A stretch of 64,000 nt of DNA from Candidatus Obscuribacterales bacterium (GTDB taxonomy: Bacteria > Cyanobacteriota > Vampirovibrionia > Obscuribacterales > Obscuribacteraceae): NCBI GenBank assembly GCA_965228855.1, contig CBDDIJ010000003.1, forward strand, positions 3,616,001-3,680,000, read 5' to 3'. The notes below the pieces were generated by a model that was not told where the DNA came from, did no database searches, and saw nothing but the letters and a program-made list of their open reading frames with translations. Positions 2,651-64,000 of this stretch are shown here, piece after piece. Position 1 is the stretch's first letter, and every line of letters starts with the position of its first letter. The position numbers and the translations under genes were made by a program.

Positions 2651-3388
2651 TTAAATTTCTAACGGCTGCTCTTGAGGTGCTGGAGTCGGTTTCGCGCCGG
2701 GTGCCGGAGTTGACGGTACGTCAGGCCCACTCTGGGAAGGCGGAACAGTGTTTGGCTGTGGGTCAAGCGGCTTGTTGTTGTTGTGGTCTTTGTCAGAGTC
2801 CAGTTTGTCGTTGGGAGAATTTGTCGGTCCGGTGATACTGTCGTCGCCCCCCTTGCCTCCGCCGGAAGCACCTCCGTCCGGCGCATTGGCATCGGTTCCG
2901 GGAAGCGAATCGGCTTGACCATCTGGTGGTTGATTCATTGCGTCATCCGGCGGATTGGCATCAGTGGAATCGTCAGTTGATGAGGACATCATTTTATTGA
3001 GCCCGTTGTCGGAACCGGGTTTTTCAGGATTACCATTGGGATCGGAGTCGCGAGCCGGATCGGTTTCTGCTGGCGGTTTAGACGAAGGGTCTGAATCGGC
3101 ACTAGTTTCATCAGAAGCCGACATCATCATGTTGCCGTCCGTCGCGGTCTGACTCATGGACTTCATACTCTCGGGGCTGGCGGTTCCAGTGGTACCATCC
3201 TTGCCACCACTGGCGGTATCTAAACCGGTAATTTCCATCGCGTGCAAATTAGACGTATCTTGTGTCATCTGTTCTCTAATCGAACTGAAGCTACTCATTT
3301 CCGCATTAGTCGGTTGGGATAAGCCGGAATCGAAACTCGGTTGACTGATTGCATTCGATTCAGCGGATTCAGCGCGTTCTCCAGCCAT
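2651..3388 (-). CDS. Acidic, low-complexity D/S/P/G-rich hypothetical protein (likely disordered)
   Basis: 245-aa ORF with GAGGAG RBS just upstream of the ATG; no signal peptide. Confidence 0.7.
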   Translation of the reverse strand: MAGERAESAESNAISQPSFDSGLSQPTNAEMSSFSSIREQMTQDTSNLHAMEITGLDTASGGKDGTTGTASPESMKSMSQTATDGNMMMSASDETSADSDPSSKPPAETDPARDSDPNGNPEKPGSDNGLNKMMSSSTDDSTDANPPDDAMNQPPDGQADSLPGTDANAPDGGASGGGKGGDDSITGPTNSPNDKLDSDKDHNNNKPLDPQPNTVPPSQSGPDVPSTPAPGAKPTPAPQEQPLEI

Positions 3389-3739
3389 GGTGAAATCTCC
3401 TCAAGTAAAAACGACAGCCCGAGCGGTTTCAAAACGGGAAGCAACTGGGGTTTGTCTAGTAAGTGGAACAGTTTGTGGCGTTTGCATACTCAATCTATCG
3501 CCGGGATATCAGGTCAACGTGACGGACGAAACGATGGCGCAAGGCCCCTGCCATTTAATCTTTCTTGACCGAAATCCCGCGCCCTGGTATCCTCGCGGGA
3601 GTGCGCCGATGTTCGATCATTTGAGAAACCGGGTATAAACCAGATCTCGGCGTATGGAAAACGAATCGAGAAATCGCATAAGCGATATCCGTTTATCGCC
3701 ATTTAAATAGATTGTCGATGTTTATATGAGGAACGCCCC

Positions 3740-4342
3740 ATGTCGGACTTAGAGCAACGGGACGGTGGCGCGGATTTTCACGCCAAAAATGCTCCTCCGG
3801 CGGCGATGACCGCAGAAGCGGTCATTACCGGCAAAGACCAGCAAGCTACGCTCGGTACTAAGAGCGAATCGGCGACCTATCCGCTATCTAATATAGATTT
3901 CGTGGACGCGAAGACGGAAAATCATAAAACCAACGACCAGGGACCTAAATTTGAGCCGCCATACTACAATCTCCGCTACGACTATACTGTCGACCCTCTG
4001 GAGAAAGGTATCGGGTCCTTATCCATGTCATTCGATTCAATCTCGACAAAAATGGCAGGGCTCCTCAACAAACCTGAAATAAAAGAGCAGGGCGGCTTTT
4101 CGCTCCAGACCCTCAAGGACACGCTCAACAATCCTGGTTTGAACAAAACGTTTTCGGAAGTCGAGGTCAACTCGCTGCGCTTGATGGCCAATCAGGCAAG
4201 ACGACTTCTCGATCCTTCTTTCGTCGCTAAGCTGGACCGCAAATCGTTCGGCGGGCCTGATCTTCCCATGGACAAGCTCTATATCACTAAAAACAGCGTG
4301 ACTGCAGCTGGAAAACAGCTGGGCGTGATCAAAGAGGCTTAA
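3740..4342 (+). CDS. Hypothetical protein
   Basis: 200-aa ORF with GAGGA RBS upstream. Confidence 0.7.
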   Translation: MSDLEQRDGGADFHAKNAPPAAMTAEAVITGKDQQATLGTKSESATYPLSNIDFVDAKTENHKTNDQGPKFEPPYYNLRYDYTVDPLEKGIGSLSMSFDSISTKMAGLLNKPEIKEQGGFSLQTLKDTLNNPGLNKTFSEVEVNSLRLMANQARRLLDPSFVAKLDRKSFGGPDLPMDKLYITKNSVTAAGKQLGVIKEA

Positions 4343-4401
4343 GTGCCGACTTTGCTTGCTATACTGTCCGATGTTTCCCAATCGAGAACAGGAGCATTTT
4401 G

Positions 4402-4737
4402 ATGAAAAGCAAGACCGCTGCGGCTGTCGCTGGACTTCTAACGATTTTTCTCGTCTGCTCACCTCTAGCAGCTGACGCTAAGAAGTGGACGGTGACGCAG
4501 AGACTTGAAAAACTTTCCAAAGATATAGACGAAGGTCGCACAGGAAATGAACTGACGACTAAACAAGTCGAAGATCTTAAAAAGGAAGTTTCAGACATCA
4601 AAGACCGCATGGAAAAAATGAAGAGCAAAAATGGCGGCAAGCTCAGCATTCCTGATACCAATAAAGTTCATAAAGAACTGAACGACTTGAGCGTAAAAAC
4701 GCTTCGCTTGCGCCTCGACAACGTTTACAAACCATAG
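4402..4737 (+). CDS. Secreted small helical/coiled-coil hypothetical protein
   Basis: AGGAG RBS; Sec signal MKSKTAAAVAGLLTIFLVCSPLAADA; K/E/D-rich helical mature part. Confidence 0.75.
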   Translation: MKSKTAAAVAGLLTIFLVCSPLAADAKKWTVTQRLEKLSKDIDEGRTGNELTTKQVEDLKKEVSDIKDRMEKMKSKNGGKLSIPDTNKVHKELNDLSVKTLRLRLDNVYKP

Positions 4738-57367: not shown

Positions 57368-58741
57368 CTACACGATCAAAGATTTGATAAATAGCGGATC
57401 TCCAGCTTTGTCGGTCAACCGACCGTCGCGCATCAATCCGACGTCGACCATCCACGTCTCGAATTCGGGGGCTGGTTTCAACCGCAGCAACTGCCGCAGA
57501 GCAGCTATGTCGTGAAAGCTTGTCGTCTGGTACGACAACATCACATCATCTCCCATCGGCACGCCCATAAAATAGTTGACACCACCTGCGGTGAGCAAGA
57601 TCGCCAGGTTCTCCAGGTCATTCTGATCAGCGTCCATGTGGTTCGTGTAGCACGCGTCTATTCCCATCGGCACTCCAAGCAGCTTACCCATGAAGTGATC
57701 TTCCAGACCGGCTCGAATCATTTGTCGGCCGTCCGCAAGATATTCCGGTCCGATGAAGCCAACGACGTCGTTGACGAGGAAGGGATTGAAATGTCTTGCG
57801 AACGCATAGCAGCGTGCTTCCAATGTCAGCTGATCCGCTCCGTTATGAGAGCGCGAAGAAAGTTCCGACCCCTGACCGGTTTCGAAGTACATCACGGTCT
57901 TGCCTTTGTTCAAGCATTTCTTCTCACCCAGAGCCTTCGCTCTCGCGAGAGTTTCCAAATCGATACCGAATGCGGTATTGCCTTTTTGGCAGCCCGCGAT
58001 ACTCTGAAAAATCAATCCGGCTGGAGCGCCCATCTCGACAGCTTTTACTTGAGTCGTAACGTGGCTTAAAATGCAGTTCTGCGCAGGCAGGCCCAGTGAG
58101 TCGATTACTTTGTTAGTCGCCTCCAGCAGACGAGCGACAATGTCCGGCGTGTCGTAAGCAGGGTTGATACCAATGACCGCGTCACCGACGCCAAACGACA
58201 ACCCCTCGTACAAAGAAGCTAATATTCCGTCGACCGCGTCAGCCGGATGATTAGGCTGCAAACGAGCACCAAGCACGCTCTCGAGCCCCAGAGTGGTGTT
58301 AGCCGTCGCAACCACTCGCATTTTTTTCGAAGCAGAAACAAGGTCCAGATTCGACATAAGTTTGCAAACCGCCGATGCCATTTCACCGGTCAAACCTAAA
58401 CGAATGCCTGCAACACCGGCTCCATCAGGCGAGTCGGCAAGAATAAAATCTCGCAACTCGGCAACAGTCCAGCTCCGAATTTTTTCGAACTGCACCTCGT
58501 CTAGATTATCGTCGATGAACTTCGTGACTTCATCTTCGTCATGAGGCACGACCGGCTCACTTCGAAGCGCTTCCATTGTTATCTCGGCAAGCACTTCCTT
58601 CGCCGCTACTCGCTCACGATCAGAAGCCGCAGCAATACCTGCAAGCGCATCACCGGACTTCTCCTCATTGGCACGCGCCAAAACATCTTTGATGTCTCTG
58701 AAATCATACTTGTGGCCAGCGACAGTCTTGGCGTACGACAT
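57368..58741 (-). CDS. eutB: Ethanolamine ammonia-lyase large subunit
   Basis: RLQPNHP, GDAVIGINP, YFETGQGS, VVGFIGPEYL, LEDHFMGKL, CYTNH. Confidence 0.96.
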   Translation of the reverse strand: MSYAKTVAGHKYDFRDIKDVLARANEEKSGDALAGIAAASDRERVAAKEVLAEITMEALRSEPVVPHDEDEVTKFIDDNLDEVQFEKIRSWTVAELRDFILADSPDGAGVAGIRLGLTGEMASAVCKLMSNLDLVSASKKMRVVATANTTLGLESVLGARLQPNHPADAVDGILASLYEGLSFGVGDAVIGINPAYDTPDIVARLLEATNKVIDSLGLPAQNCILSHVTTQVKAVEMGAPAGLIFQSIAGCQKGNTAFGIDLETLARAKALGEKKCLNKGKTVMYFETGQGSELSSRSHNGADQLTLEARCYAFARHFNPFLVNDVVGFIGPEYLADGRQMIRAGLEDHFMGKLLGVPMGIDACYTNHMDADQNDLENLAILLTAGGVNYFMGVPMGDDVMLSYQTTSFHDIAALRQLLRLKPAPEFETWMVDVGLMRDGRLTDKAGDPLFIKSLIV

Positions 58742-58845
58742 TCCACGGTCCTTCGCGCGGGGCGATCAAAAACGCGTTCTATAGTGTACCCTATGGTCTG
58801 TTGATTTCGAAGTACAAGTCTTTCCATCTCGGAAAACATACGAAG

Positions 58846-59583
58846 ATGACGCGAAGCAACGAAAAAGCGGAATTAGAATTGGCTGCGATGAAACAGTCTA
58901 CGCCTGCTCGAATTGCCGTTGGACGAGCAGGCGAGCGTCCGAAAACAACAACTTGGATAAGTTTCCGGCACGACCACGCGACGGCAAGGGATGCTGTACA
59001 TAGCGAGTTGAGCGACTCCTTCATTGAAAACTTCGCCCATGCAAACTCTTTTCCTGTAATTCAATCGCTGGTCGGAAGTAGACACGAATTTGTTCTCAAT
59101 CCCCCGATGGGAAAGAAAACTGACGAGCAAACGCTGGCGACTCTTTGCTCATCATGCCCATCTGACAACGACGTTCAAATCGTAATTTGCGATGGACTGT
59201 CGGCAATGGCAGTCGAGACCAACATAAAAGACCTGTTACCGATGATCGAAGATGGTTTGAAGATAGAAGGTATAACAGTCGGAACACCAATTATCGTTAG
59301 ATACGGTCGCGTCGCGATCGCGGATCAAATAAGCCACGCTCTGGGCGCGAAGCTCGCGATTAATCTGATTGGAGAAAGACCCGGTCTGTCTTCAGGCGCT
59401 GGGATGAGCGCATACCTCACTCTCAACCCAGGTCCGGAGACGATAAGCTCCGATCGGACCGTCGTTTCGAACATTCACAGTCGCGGCACGCCACCGGTTG
59501 AAGCCGGTGCCTATATCGTACATCTGGCAAAGACCATTCTTGAAAAGAAGGTATCCGGTGTCCAACTCCAGAAGCTGCTCTGA
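58846..59583 (+). CDS. eutC: Ethanolamine ammonia-lyase small subunit
   Basis: TPARIAVGRAG, HATARDAV, DGLSA, LIGERPGL, SAYLT, SNIH. Confidence 0.95.
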   Translation: MTRSNEKAELELAAMKQSTPARIAVGRAGERPKTTTWISFRHDHATARDAVHSELSDSFIENFAHANSFPVIQSLVGSRHEFVLNPPMGKKTDEQTLATLCSSCPSDNDVQIVICDGLSAMAVETNIKDLLPMIEDGLKIEGITVGTPIIVRYGRVAIADQISHALGAKLAINLIGERPGLSSGAGMSAYLTLNPGPETISSDRTVVSNIHSRGTPPVEAGAYIVHLAKTILEKKVSGVQLQKLL

Positions 59584-61024
59584 TTCACAGCATTCTCTCA
59601 ACAGCCTTACGAGCGTCGGCATCGACATTGGCACAACATCGACGCATCTCGTTTTCAGCAAACTCCTATTAGCGAATGAGGCGGGCACCACACAAATTCC
59701 GCGCCTTACCATTCGAGAACGAAAAGTACTCTACGAAAGCCCGATCTTCTTAACGCCTTTACGGGAAGATGGCACCATCGACGGTGCCGGAGTTGCCGAG
59801 CTGCTTCGAGAAGAGTACAGAAAGTCAGGCTTCAGCCCGGAAGATATCAATTGCGGTGCGGTCATCGTTACGGGCGAAACAGCACTGCTGCGAAACGCGG
59901 AACAGGTGCTACACGAAATCTCTTCCCTGGCAGGCGATTTCGTCGCTGCCAGCGCCGGTCCGAACTTGGAAAGCGCGCTTGCCGGACGAGGCTCGGGGGC
60001 GATGCAACACTCGCTGAAAAATCGAAACACAATTTGCAACATCGACGTCGGAGGTGGCACGACAAACATAGCTATTTTTCACAACGGAGTATTACTGGAA
60101 ACAGCCTGTTTGCGCATAGGCGGGCGCTGTTTCCGATTCAACAGACAGGGCTTGAGTACAGGCGTTTCCCAGAGCGGACGAGAGCTGATTGAAAGTTTGT
60201 CGGTAAACGATGATTTTGAAAAACTTGGTCTGTTTGCGGCAAAGCTCATAATTGACTTTGTAACGAGCAAAACCTCTCTAAGTGAAGATGGTAATGGAAG
60301 CCACATCGGAAAATTTCTGATGACCCCACCGTTAAGATTCTTGAGAGAAGCTGATGAATACTGGCTCAGCGGCGGCGTAGCGGAGCTCGTCTCCTCGGAG
60401 AAGCTGGATCCGTATGTTTTCGAGGACTTTGGTTGGTTCCTCGCTCAGGGTTTAAAACAAATTCTCGACGCGAGAAAAGTAAACTATCGAGTCGCGGCAA
60501 ATCCGGTTCGTGCCACCGTACTTGGTGCAGGGAGTTACTCGGTTCAACTGTCAGGTAACACCGTCTGTATTAACACAGACAGACTGCCACTCAAAGGAAT
60601 TCCGATAACGCGGCCTTTTCAATCCATGCCGGCAAGCGATCTCAAGAACAGTGAAGCGGTTTCCGCTGCCATAAAAGCGGCAAGCTCAATCATGGAGTCG
60701 AGCGCGAGTGGCAAACCGGCTGCAATTGTTTTAGAACTTAAAGGCACTCCAGACTATGCCGCACTGAAAGCTTTAGCAGACGCACTGGCCGCTGCACTGG
60801 TTTCTACTCAGCTAGCAACTCCATATGTGTTAATCGTCGAAAGCGACACGGCGATGGCGCTTGGTCAACTTCTCAAAGGTCGGCTACCTCACCGGGACTT
60901 CGTAGTGCTTGATGGAATCGACTTCACGAGTGGAGACTATCTGGACATCGGAAAACCGCTTGCGGCTAGCACATCCATTCCTGTCACGGTCAAGAGCTTG
61001 ATTTTCGCCAACGAGCAGTTCTAG
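59558..61024 (+). CDS. eutA: Ethanolamine ammonia-lyase reactivating factor
   Basis: SVGIDIGTTSTHLVFS, GAVIVTGET, AGPNLES, NIDVGGGTTN, GDYLDIG; probable GTG start overlapping the eutC end. Confidence 0.92.
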   Translation: MSNSRSCSDSQHSLNSLTSVGIDIGTTSTHLVFSKLLLANEAGTTQIPRLTIRERKVLYESPIFLTPLREDGTIDGAGVAELLREEYRKSGFSPEDINCGAVIVTGETALLRNAEQVLHEISSLAGDFVAASAGPNLESALAGRGSGAMQHSLKNRNTICNIDVGGGTTNIAIFHNGVLLETACLRIGGRCFRFNRQGLSTGVSQSGRELIESLSVNDDFEKLGLFAAKLIIDFVTSKTSLSEDGNGSHIGKFLMTPPLRFLREADEYWLSGGVAELVSSEKLDPYVFEDFGWFLAQGLKQILDARKVNYRVAANPVRATVLGAGSYSVQLSGNTVCINTDRLPLKGIPITRPFQSMPASDLKNSEAVSAAIKAASSIMESSASGKPAAIVLELKGTPDYAALKALADALAAALVSTQLATPYVLIVESDTAMALGQLLKGRLPHRDFVVLDGIDFTSGDYLDIGKPLAASTSIPVTVKSLIFANEQF

Positions 61025-61034
61025 CAATCTATAA

Positions 61035-62015
61035 CTAAGCGCCACGTTCTCCGGACTCGAGTTCCTTTATAAACTCGCAGAGCTTCTCGGCATCAGCATT
61101 GTCGGGAAGAATCCCAGCCGCCTTCTCCAGACAGTCGTAAGCTCCGGAGAAATCCTCACTCAGGGCACGCACTCGAGCCAGGTGCAGCCATCCGTTCAAA
61201 TAATTCGGGTTGAGCGACAGCGCCTTTTCCAAAATCTTCTGGGACTTCAGAATATTTCCTTCGCCCAGGTAGAGAAAACCAAGATTACCATGCGGCCATT
61301 CAAAGTCCGGATATTCTTCGATCAGCGCCTCAAATACTTCCTTGGCACCGTCGATATCACCAGCCATCATCAGGTTGTACCCGGAGATGTTTCGTTGCTC
61401 CGCCATGAGCGGCACCGGAAATCTGGGCAATCTGGCTTGCAAGAAATTCTTGGCTTTCACGCCCCAGTCGCCGGCACCATCTCCTTCGATTGCGTATGTG
61501 AGCGCATCGCGAGCCTGTTCTGTCCAGCCAAGTTCCTTGTAGTGAACTCCAAGCTCGTAGAACTCGCGAGGAGTTAAATCAGTCGGCACCACGCGCGGTG
61601 GCGGCTCCTCGGCTCCGGCCACAGACACGACCTCGACCAACTCCTCGATAAATTTGCTTACTTTATCCTCGGGAACCCCGAGCGCAGTGAGCTGCTCCCG
61701 GATGTCATCCAGATGTTGCTTCGAGTCGGAGTCGCCTGTTCCATCGGCATCGTCGTGGTCGTTGCTTGCCTGTTGTTGAAGCAGTTTCATCACCGCATTC
61801 GTTAGGTTCGCCCCAATCCTCGCACCTTGCTGATAGCCCCGCCGAGCCTCCTCGTCAAGCTTGTCGCCGTTCGGTGTGTCCTCCGGCTCCTCATAGCCAA
61901 GCGTGAAAGCCTCCGTCGCCTGGTCATTCTTTCCCATGAGCAGGTACTTGATTCCCAAACGTCGATATTCACGAGCCGATAGTCCGGTGGGCAATTCGTC
62001 CGGCGGTAACGCCAT
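61035..62015 (-). CDS. TPR protein
   Basis: TPR patterns such as PHGNLGFLYL..G...KAL.LNP; internally duplicated N-terminal unit. Confidence 0.8.
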   Translation of the reverse strand: MALPPDELPTGLSAREYRRLGIKYLLMGKNDQATEAFTLGYEEPEDTPNGDKLDEEARRGYQQGARIGANLTNAVMKLLQQQASNDHDDADGTGDSDSKQHLDDIREQLTALGVPEDKVSKFIEELVEVVSVAGAEEPPPRVVPTDLTPREFYELGVHYKELGWTEQARDALTYAIEGDGAGDWGVKAKNFLQARLPRFPVPLMAEQRNISGYNLMMAGDIDGAKEVFEALIEEYPDFEWPHGNLGFLYLGEGNILKSQKILEKALSLNPNYLNGWLHLARVRALSEDFSGAYDCLEKAAGILPDNADAEKLCEFIKELESGERGA

Positions 62016-62106: not shown

Positions 62107-62149
62107 AAAGAAAAGCCTGAATTCAGCACGCAGGCGCGAATCCAGGCTT
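62107..62149 (-). terminator. Terminator of the ArsR-metallothionein unit
   Basis: Minus strand AAGCCTGGATTC...GAATTCAGGCTT followed by TTCTTT. Confidence 0.75.
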
Positions 62150-62179
62150 CTTAAAAATTAGATTTTTGTTGTCGAACGA

Positions 62180-62335
62180 TTAGGCGGCACACTCTTTGCA
62201 GCCGTTTTCACACGAGCAGCATTCGCAGCAGCAATCGCAATTCGCGCACTTGCCGCAACTTTTGTCGCTACATTTTGCGCAATTAGAGTCCTTACAACAA
62301 TCTTCTTTCTTACAGCACTCGTTCTTTTCGCTCAT
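62180..62335 (-). CDS. Metallothionein-like Cys-rich protein (51 aa, 17 Cys)
   Basis: MSEKNECCKKEDCCKDSNCAKCSDKSCGKCANCDCCCECCSCENGCKECAA; GAGGT RBS; 31 nt downstream of the ArsR/SmtB gene. Confidence 0.85.
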   Translation of the reverse strand: MSEKNECCKKEDCCKDSNCAKCSDKSCGKCANCDCCCECCSCENGCKECAA

Positions 62336-62366
62336 TTTAAACCTCACTTGCAGTAAACAAAGCCGG

Positions 62367-62792
62367 TCACTCGCCTGGAGTAACCATGCTAACTATTCCG
62401 TCTCGACTACCCTCACTGTCACGAAGCAGGCACACTGCTTTATGCAACAGGTCGATTATGCAGGTGTCTATCACCTTGTAGTAGACATTCGTACCAACGC
62501 GACGGGTTGAAACAATTCCGCGGTCCGAAAGGCGCTGCAATTGATTTGATACAGCCTGCGGTTTCATGCCGAGAGATACGGCAAGGTCGCAAACGCACAT
62601 TTCTTTCGCTAAGGCCAGTGTGTGCAGAAGTTTCAGCCGAGTGTCATTGGCGAGGATTTTGAACAAGTCTTCCAATTCCGAAGCGTCTCTGTCAGAGAGG
62701 GGAGCTTCGTCTGGAAAGACAAATTCAGTTGGACAACATTGTTGCCGAACCTCACTCTTGTCTACGCTTGAACTGGTCACCTGATACTCCAT
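62367..62792 (-). CDS. ArsR/SmtB family metal-sensing repressor
   Basis: FKILANDTRLKLL, EMCVCDL (alpha3 metal motif), QAVSNQL..L, V..RR.G..VYY; N-terminal CC. Confidence 0.92.
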   Translation of the reverse strand: MEYQVTSSSVDKSEVRQQCCPTEFVFPDEAPLSDRDASELEDLFKILANDTRLKLLHTLALAKEMCVCDLAVSLGMKPQAVSNQLQRLSDRGIVSTRRVGTNVYYKVIDTCIIDLLHKAVCLLRDSEGSRDGIVSMVTPGE

Positions 62793-62824
62793 TTATTTCG
62801 GGCAATTGAGTCACCAATTTCATT

Positions 62825-62844
62825 ATTACACCAGATCGTGTAAT
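62825..62844. promoter_or_regulatory. Putative ArsR operator
   Basis: Perfect inverted repeat ATTACAC-N6-GTGTAAT, 32 nt upstream of the ArsR start. Confidence 0.65.
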
Positions 62845-62995
62845 TGTGTACATTAATTGTGGTTCCAGACACAGAACGTCCTATTTTATAGAACTGGAAA
62901 CCGTTTTCAGTTTCATTCCTGCTTATATTATGGGGTAGGCAAGCAGTTCTAAAACTTCCCTACACACAGGCTAATGACACCCATATCCATAGAAA

Positions 62996-64000
62996 CTAGC
63001 GTGACCCCATCGGCTCGCTTCCACCCACACGGAATACCACTGGGTCGCTGAACGCTCCAACAATCAACCGCTCTCCATTCAAAGACGCGGCGCGCACGCA
63101 ATAAGTCCCCGGCTCCAGGTCGGCAGTGGGAATTCGGAAAGTCGAACTCGTCTCGCCCGCAGTCCACCTCTTCGAAGCACGAGATGAAATTTCCGTTTCC
63201 CGATACGTTCTCTTATAAGTCTCAAAACATTCATTCGGTTTTGACAACTCTATAACCAAACCTTGCGCGCCATCAACCTCGGTATCACAAATGAAAACCG
63301 CCTCGTCTCCGCGCGCACTAAGACCCGTTGGAGATTGACTCAAATAGCGATTATCAGGGCGTAAGCGCGGAACATAGTCGGCGTCACTGGCGAGCCGCAC
63401 AGTCAAATCTTTGATGGCTTTGACGTTTCGTATCTGAAGATGCAATTTATCCACTGAAGGCTGCAAATACCAGCCAACCTGCTCTGCCAGGGCGAAACGG
63501 TACGTGTGGAGTTTCGCATCGCCAATCACATCGGAGTATGCTGCCGTTCCGTAAACATCACTCGCGACCCGTTTCCAATTCTCGCCCCACGAGAGGGTAG
63601 CATAGCCGCCGTCCCTGGTTCCCTCGCAAGAGAAGCGGATCTCTATCGCTTCACAAGACAGAGGTATCAACGAAGGATCAATCAAGATATCGTAGGAGGA
63701 AGATGTGGAACTATCGTCATGTTGCGTCACAATCAAATTGTGCGAAGCCAATGGCATCGCATCCGGTATCAGCTGAACGCGCGACAATTTGAGAGTCTCG
63801 GGCTCCCATTTCGTAACGACGCAAAAGGAGAGCAGATACTGCCGAAGTGCCGTCGCATTAATTAGATTGGCATCGCGCTCCGTGAAGTGCTCGCGATCGA
63901 GAATTTGCACTCGATGGTAGTTGGATTTGGGCATAAACGGCTCGTTCTGCGTCACCGGTAGCAACGCCTGGTTTAAGCCATAAGGTCCATCAATATTTAG
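62996..64000 (-). CDS. C-terminal part of a larger hypothetical protein (truncated at window end)
   Basis: Frame stays open from 63964 to the window edge; beta-sandwich-like C-terminal sequence. Confidence 0.65.
   Translation of the reverse strand, partial: LNIDGPYGLNQALLPVTQNEPFMPKSNYHRVQILDREHFTERDANLINATALRQYLLSFCVVTKWEPETLKLSRVQLIPDAMPLASHNLIVTQHDDSSTSSSYDILIDPSLIPLSCEAIEIRFSCEGTRDGGYATLSWGENWKRVASDVYGTAAYSDVIGDAKLHTYRFALAEQVGWYLQPSVDKLHLQIRNVKAIKDLTVRLASDADYVPRLRPDNRYLSQSPTGLSARGDEAVFICDTEVDGAQGLVIELSKPNECFETYKRTYRETEISSRASKRWTAGETSSTFRIPTADLEPGTYCVRAASLNGERLIVGAFSDPVVFRVGGSEPMGSR

Follow-up and report, generated by a model that had tools for sequence, protein, structure and literature searches.

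The stretch of DNA analysed here, 64,000 nucleotides long and referred to as the window, contains on its minus strand a compact two-gene unit consisting of a gene for an ArsR/SmtB repressor of the AntR clade (62367–62792) and, behind it, a gene for a metallothionein-like peptide (62180–62335). Translation of the latter reproduced exactly the product quoted in the initial annotation, with 51 residues of which 17 (33%) are Cys, and with neither His nor any aromatic residue. The cysteines are spaced x6-CC-x4-CC-x4-C-x2-C-x4-C-x2-C-x2-C-x-CCC-x-CC-x-C-x3-C-x2-C-x2. Also as described are the Shine-Dalgarno sequence GAGGT (62345–62341, minus strand), which precedes the ATG by 5 nt, and the distance of 31 nt from the arsR stop codon to the peptide gene. 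The peptide gene is followed by an intrinsic terminator (62107–62151, minus strand) made up of a hairpin (62151–62115) and a U-rich tail. It was missing from the list of a simple consensus scanner; the hairpin, at −24.6 kcal/mol and a z-score of −4.87 (none of 200 shuffles was equally good), bears out the terminator that had been proposed there. A weak hairpin with a T-rich tail at the 3′ end of the regulator gene (62364–62386, minus strand), which came from the consensus scanner, is probably not a terminator, its z-score being only −1.12.

The more likely start of the regulator is the GTG at 62780, which has a GGAG ahead of it, rather than the ATG at 62792. Upstream lies a sigma70-like promoter (62822–62850, minus strand) composed of the −35 element TACACA (62850–62845), a 17-nt spacer and the TG-extended −10 element AATAAT (62827–62822); this is a consensus match only, three being found against 2.0 expected. 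The palindrome ATTACAC-N6-GTGTAAT (62825–62844), a putative repressor site, is located between the −35 element and the −10 element and extends over the latter. A second palindrome, AACTGAAAAC-G-GTTTCCAGTT (62892–62912), resembles binding sites of the Fur family, possibly those of Zur, and is placed 75 nt upstream of the −10 element. The cassette is flanked upstream by a gene for a 322-aa protein without family match (62996–63964, minus strand) and downstream by one for a TPR protein (61035–62015, minus strand), which is likewise found downstream in the genus relatives. Further away (57368–61024), ethanolamine ammonia-lyase genes show an unusual layout, eutB (minus strand) being divergent from eutC-eutA.

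Apart from the peptide ORF, no ORF of 40–120 aa in the window reaches 25% Cys, and a comparable Cys-rich ORF occurred in none of 30 shuffled windows. In each of the genus's seven other genomes the regulator is likewise present, with a 17-Cys peptide behind it. A GTDB-wide search returned 512 relatives of the regulator, the best 80 of which were used; 34 of these form an Obscuribacterales group and 46 come from other phyla, the nearest named relatives being Candidatus Obscuribacterales at 99% identity. When these best 80 of 512 were scanned for what lies behind the homologous ArsR gene, as had been suggested, a peptide with 15–17 Cys was found directly downstream in 31 of the 34 Obscuribacterales-clade loci and in none of the 46 others. 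GGAG or GAGG precedes the peptide ATG in all ten orthologous loci examined, and a hairpin with a T-run follows 30 of 50 peptide homologues, a count made without shuffle control. Further copies were supplied by a codon-pattern scan, from which 19 were picked by hand (ATG, ribosome-binding site, richness in Asp, Glu and Lys); copies already contained in the first set were left out, as were L120, L138 and L202, which are truncated or lack a start. The family thus assembled comprises 51 distinct peptides of 39–53 aa and 14–17 Cys, of which 11 Cys are invariant, with the core C-x4/5-C-x2-C-x2-C-x-CCC-x-CC. Cys is encoded by 503 TGC and 298 TGT codons. Among close pairs (those with pN < 0.2, which are not independent of each other), pN/pS was below 1 in 114 out of 114, with a median of 0.16, a sign of purifying selection, and the spacing of the Cys is fixed. 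Together with the 31 downstream copies, this upholds the view that the peptide ORF is a real, conserved and selected gene. At the RNA level the support is weak: metatranscriptome contigs from four studies cover only 62243–62806, one of them bridging the intergenic gap, the runs having been pre-chosen with the window and possibly representing DNA.

Two statements of the initial annotation hold for the window and only in part for the family. Freedom from His and aromatic residues is a property of the window copy, whereas one His is present in 8 and Tyr or Phe in 27 of the 51 peptides. The operon with a sensor exists at the 31 regulator loci, but 17 of the 51 peptides are stand-alone copies with no regulator adjacent. 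As three of the 34 orthologous regulators (L064, L068, L069) also lack a peptide behind them, the pairing is not obligatory. In two of the 19 hand-picked copies (L175, L232) an intact peptide gene stands behind what by eye seems a broken regulator remnant, and at L138 a start-less, degenerate copy lies beside an ars operon.

A strict motif detected the family in 52 of 104 family genomes, the reversed-pattern control giving none; one of the 52 (G224) resembles a chance repeat, G006 was missed despite having the gene, and the count includes matches taken by motif alone. Among the hits examined the family appears to be confined to Obscuribacterales, which are non-photosynthetic relatives of the cyanobacteria; L059, recorded as Cryomorphaceae, and L132 and L155, recorded as Drouetiella, contain typical members too. 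Pattern scans yielded at least 120 stretches in all genomes and at least 119 in metagenomes, with five family-like peptides, judged by eye, among the metagenome matches listed, and a tblastn-confirmed locus search with the peptide retained one locus from 593 candidates. A loose Cys-codon pattern applied to 301 genomes of the class was discarded for counting, being swamped by poly-Gln repeats. The antisense frames of Gln, Ala and Met repeats give rise to spurious Cys-rich ORFs (e.g. L053:4092–4529 and many in L118–L237), a source of false positives for metallothionein mining. The prediction that annotation would miss the gene was supported by an exact look-up of ten peptides in a collection of 15 billion proteins, which found none of them; a differently called start would also lead to a miss. 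This absence is consistent with gene callers passing over the peptide. With a family that the motif detects in roughly one in two of the 104 Obscuribacterales genomes and that has no exact entry for the ten peptides in such a collection, the notion that bacteria rarely use metallothioneins may in part reflect blind spots of gene calling.

According to PMC12800444, metallothioneins are small, with up to ~30% Cys arranged in CC, CxC and CCC and with few aromatic residues, which is the composition of the window peptide with its 51 aa, 33% Cys and lack of aromatic residues. The canonical bacterial representatives SmtA and BmtA, controlled by SmtB, BxmR, AzuR or Zur, resemble it as small Cys-rich peptides under a metal-sensor gene and provide precedents for both ArsR-family repression and Zur activation. 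They differ in being members of PF02069 (family 14) with ~16% Cys (PMC13578184, Table 1), whereas the peptide described here has 33% Cys in CCC and CC runs, no conserved His and no PF02069 match, and is encoded in a head-to-tail operon with an AntR-clade sensor that lacks the α5 His site. PF02069 matched none of the 51 members and nothing in the 104 family genomes, with S. elongatus positive as a control, which agrees with the earlier suggestion of a family other than SmtA. What we take to be the family-14 metallothionein motif was also absent from all 51 peptides. HMMER, which handles low-complexity peptides poorly, gave no Pfam or NCBIfam match to the peptide or the members, and searches with the peptide found nothing in the protein collection, in 1.8 billion representatives or, up to an E-value of 10, in the PDB. 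Since the PDB does contain metallothioneins, these blanks probably result from the low-complexity filter and are weak; for the exclusion of SmtA we used only the PF02069 genome scan with its working control. All ESM Atlas matches to the peptide were below 0.9, the nearest named cluster (0.77) being PF02067, the Drosophila metallothionein, which we regard as a lead only.

The peptide had been called eukaryote-style, and this stands for composition. Like the metallothioneins of Tetrahymena (7a), arthropods and Drosophila (PF02067), it consists of about one third Cys, has far more Lys than Arg, contains CC and CCC clusters and is poor in His and aromatic residues. The description fails at the level of motifs. 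The building blocks given for Tetrahymena 7a/7b are C3X6C2X6, C2X6 and CXCXXCXC(C) (PMC1808422), and C3X6C2X6, C2X6C, CXCXXCXCC and CXCXXCXC (X not being Cys) occurred in none of the 51 peptides, so that convergence is likelier than shared descent. At the level of titles, the literature contained no description of a metallothionein from Obscuribacter or Melainabacteria nor of a native bacterial metallothionein for Sb or As, mentions within reviews being conceivable. In the available parts of PMC11705764, which surveyed environmental metallothioneins by deep learning, Melainabacteria are not mentioned, and five Cys-run patterns are absent from its supplements as far as these were available; in the UniProt-derived set used there, prokaryotes contribute six sequences, which come from three species. 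The number of prokaryotic metallothionein families known is very small, and the present one would extend it by a family whose peptides are about twice as dense in Cys as SmtA.

The regulator matches the NCBIfam model NF033788 (metalloregulator ArsR/SmtB) with 84 bits against a cut-off of 55. This confirms the family to which the sensor had been assigned, but not a kinship with SmtB, as sequence comparison places it with AntR, a sensor of Sb(III) and methylarsenite, rather than with the SmtB-type proteins. Its top PDB match is 6UVU (E = 5e-31), followed at 1e-15 by Listeria Lmo1102; by eye, the 6UVU chain agrees with the start of C. testosteroni JL40 antR1 as given in the supplement of PMC12641948. 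The top plasmid match is annotated as "antimonite-responsive transcriptional repressor AntR" and shows 46% identity. In a quick IQ-TREE calculation (90 rows, 137 columns, long branches), 86 rows form an AntR-like clade with an SH-aLRT support of 100, apart from the CadC/SmtB-like outgroup rows. Within it the window protein and 33 others make up an Obscuribacterales sub-clade (support 100), which shares a common clade with AntR, without firm branching order between the two. The Cys pair C111/C121, aligned with C103/C113 of AntR, is kept throughout this AntR-like clade (86 of 86 rows). A role of C103/C113 in Sb binding was reportedly found by Viswanathan in 2021.

The zinc-sensor motif of SmtB and CzrA in helix α5, DxHx10Hx2(H/E) (PMC11672702), is not present in the window regulator, which reads D-x-C-x9-C at this place. 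With an AntR-clade sensor lacking the α5 site, induction may be due to Sb(III) or to an arsenical and not only to Cd or Zn. The window regulator also has C19, C20 and C66-V-C68, a set that resembles, as a sequence feature only, the α3N site of CadC, where an α3 CxC and two N-terminal Cys constitute the Cd/Pb site (PMC11672702). The second α3 cysteine, C68, is found in 33 of the 34 sub-clade rows and in none of the 46 other loci and is missing from AntR; the N-terminal CC is found in 31 of the 34. The sub-clade carrying the peptide is thus the same one that has the candidate second site, although, with both confined to a single clade, this amounts to one event and not to a statistical correlation. 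In comparison with the CadC sensors of Listeria and S. aureus pI258, which have two N-terminal Cys and an α3 CxC as well, the N-terminal Cys are adjacent here, an AntR-type α5 Cys pair is added, the operator is that of the AntR clade, and a peptide instead of a pump is controlled.

The palindromic operator is present in one perfect copy in the 8.2-Mb genome, the one in the window, with no copy at one mismatch and 12 at two. Allowing up to two mismatches, it was found ahead of 71 of the 78 homologous regulators that had enough upstream DNA to be scored and in none of 212 control windows, these being mostly coding DNA. The annotated antR (L242) has it upstream with one mismatch. On the simplest reading, a repressor dimer would bind ATTACAC-N6-GTGTAAT and autorepress the two-gene unit. 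The self-contained module proposed in the initial annotation is supported as a two-gene cassette, with a predicted operator over the shared promoter.

The closest known arrangement is the ant operon (antRCA) of Comamonas testosteroni and Enterobacter plasmids, which shares the regulator clade, the C-terminal Cys pair and the operator palindrome, and which likewise has the regulator first and a small Cys-containing protein second. AntC, which is 62 aa long and has only 4 Cys, nevertheless differs in sequence from the 17-Cys peptide; the cassette here is without the AntA pump, and its sensor has C19/C20 and C68 in addition to what is found in AntR. No tblastn match to AntC was detected in the genome, and only the peptide follows the regulator. 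Across Obscuribacterales both genes are conserved together, and neither a pump nor an enzyme accompanies them consistently.

We consider it probable, judging from the sequences, that the cassette is a self-regulating metallothionein switch of two genes which handles soft, thiol-seeking ions without a pump. The repressor dimer would sit on ATTACAC-N6-GTGTAAT and block its own promoter until an ion, bound at the AntR-type C111/C121 or at the CadC-like C19/C20/C66/C68, releases it. The bicistronic message would then give rise to the 17-Cys peptide, which would wrap the ions in thiolate clusters; by arithmetic, 17 Cys could accommodate ~5–6 divalent ions, or ~5 trivalent metalloid atoms at three Cys each. 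With the free ion dropping, repression would resume. Sequestration would in this way stand in for the AntA-type efflux of the ant operon, and the Fur/Zur-like box upstream may provide an extra zinc input in the window lineage and in some stand-alone copies. The ion specificity of the peptide is likely to be broad. For its main physiological cargo we would give Cd, Zn, Hg or Pb an even chance; Sb(III), As(III) or methylarsenite appear a good deal less probable, and there is a slim chance each for Cu(I)/Ag and for some other cargo. A peptide made up of one third Cys, together with a repressor related to AntR, may hence represent a new bacterial metallothionein family, and perhaps a kind that takes Sb and As besides Cd and Zn. 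The repressor, the operator and the 51 natural peptide variants could serve as parts for biosensors and bioremediation.

A narrower version of this switch is a thionein dedicated to metalloids, in which AntR-like sensing of Sb(III) and methylarsenite is coupled to a peptide sink that replaces the chaperone-pump pair AntC/AntA. We regard this as tentative, and would give the same modest chance to the fuller proposal that the peptide is the first native bacterial Sb/As metallothionein, independently evolved, working by sequestration only, with an AntR-type sensor and a CadC-like second site, and with some copies wired to zinc. The closest characterised regulator is AntR, with the Cys pair and the operator in common, and Sb(III) as well as methylarsenite (MAs(III)) are named as its inducers in a review (PMC12665635). 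Ars-type genes follow clade members in 6 of the 46 outside loci, and the peptide-less Obscuribacterales orthologue L068 stands directly before an ars operon; the CCC and CC runs would also suit three-coordinate binding. However, it is the CadC-like C68 that marks the peptide-carrying sub-clade, a clade member precedes cadD, Fur/Zur-like boxes lie ahead of stand-alone copies with the top genomic site ahead of a ZIP transporter, and arsC-acr3 is already present in the genome, as is an arsR-glyoxalase operon apart from it. With its AntR-clade sensor, the cassette offers a direct test of bacterial Sb/As detoxification by peptide sequestration.

Somewhat less probable still is that the peptide mainly stores or buffers zinc and is activated by Zur, as BmtA is in marine Synechococcus, with the AntR-type repressor contributing a secondary input. 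A palindrome AATGRAAAC-N-GTTTYCATT is found 130–146 nt upstream of five stand-alone copies, in degenerate form before a sixth and not before 13. Its distance to the −10 element, 75 nt in the window and 82–86 nt before a −10-like hexamer in the five stand-alone copies, fits an activator position, and the Zur-activated metallothionein bmtA is a precedent (PMC9337993). With a matrix from the five stand-alone copies, which are from other genomes, the box of the window ranks third in 8.2 Mb and exceeds every score obtained on 1.64 Mb of shuffled DNA; the seed consensus for the training sites had been chosen by eye, at a time when the site of the window was already known. The two sites that outrank it are upstream of a ZIP transporter and of a TonB-receptor-like gene, and no ZnuA was found in the genome (95% complete). 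Against this explanation, the box is missing at 32 of the 33 other regulator-linked loci scored, the one exception being the nearest relative, and at most other stand-alone copies; none was found at the COG0523 cluster of the genome, and no cognate regulator is singled out among its seven Fur-family genes. The choice of the training consensus by eye also weighs against it.

The genome additionally encodes a ZIP transporter rich in His, as well as a P1B ATPase whose long N-terminus is also His-rich. A weaker Fur-like box is located upstream of a gene for a His-rich protein of 107 aa in the same genome (G000:C2:686637–686957; L238:8635–8958). This protein gave no Pfam match, has a Fur-family gene at a distance of 2.5 kb and is a possible zinc store.

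Cys-rich peptides and Cys-pair ArsR proteins can also have redox or persulfide roles, and the Cys pair might accordingly sense oxidants or reactive sulfur which the peptide absorbs. A few cassette neighbours are thioredoxins or Rrf2 proteins, but the regulator reaches only 41 bits with the BigR model, the cut-off of which is 155, and the neighbours of the clade are metal(loid) genes, making such a thiol buffer improbable. A ranthipeptide-like precursor that undergoes modification, or else a small Fe-S protein, as might be suggested by the Cys-richness and CxxCxxC spacing, is the least credible of all, given that a modifying enzyme is never a fixed neighbour (77 neighbouring proteins scanned), that the terminator follows directly behind the peptide gene and that a leader region, a hydrophobic core and a Fer4 match are all absent.

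The neighbours of the metallothionein cassette in Obscuribacterales are variable and mostly unrelated (77 of the 107 listed were scanned); isolated hints come from one MerC-domain and one COG0523 gene and from an ars operon. The MerC-domain gene (L053:2253–2783) is divergent from the cassette and lies amid conjugation genes, and the COG0523 gene (L059:1561–2934) is directly upstream of the cassette. Behind the regulators of the 46 outside loci we found hgcA-type genes in 9 cases, MtrA-domain genes in 12, ars-type genes in the 6 mentioned above, RND-type efflux genes in 2 and antC-antA in one, the latter belonging to an operon of the antRCA kind that is complete and comes from a Nitrospirae MAG (L100:3007–5553). 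Plasmid members of the clade stand ahead of cadD or near arsM. The regulators adjacent to cadD or to an annotated cadC on pWCFS103 (L244) and on a B. cereus plasmid (L245) belong to the AntR-like clade and have the same operator, and the annotation may be misleading there. At L071:3387–3767, an AntR-clade regulator is followed by a gene for a protein of 126 aa with 21 Cys, a signal-like N-terminus and no Pfam match; judged by eye it is similar to four-helix copper-storage proteins, and it is perhaps a second sequestration module.

The MtrA-domain proteins, mostly PterinBD-DUF4346 fusions, follow regulators in Planctomycetota and Acidobacteriota (L072, L083, L087, L089–L094, L106, L107, L114) and possibly take part in corrinoid-dependent metal(loid) methylation. 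The hgcA-type genes, called by a CdhD match and by what we take to be the HgcA motif, have the regulator directly upstream (L074, L075, L078, L080, L082, L097, L101, L111 and L115, at about 2920–4590) and come from Desulfomonile-like and other deltaproteobacterial genomes, with operator copies at two to three mismatches. The Cys pattern of these regulators is unlike that of the arsR product encoded upstream of hgcAB in P. mercurii ND132, which is described with another pattern in bioRxiv 2022.10.17.512643; because the ND132 pattern differs, its response to As and SAH was not transferred to the window regulator. The common operator ahead of the hgcA-linked regulators provides a testable handle on the control of mercury methylation.
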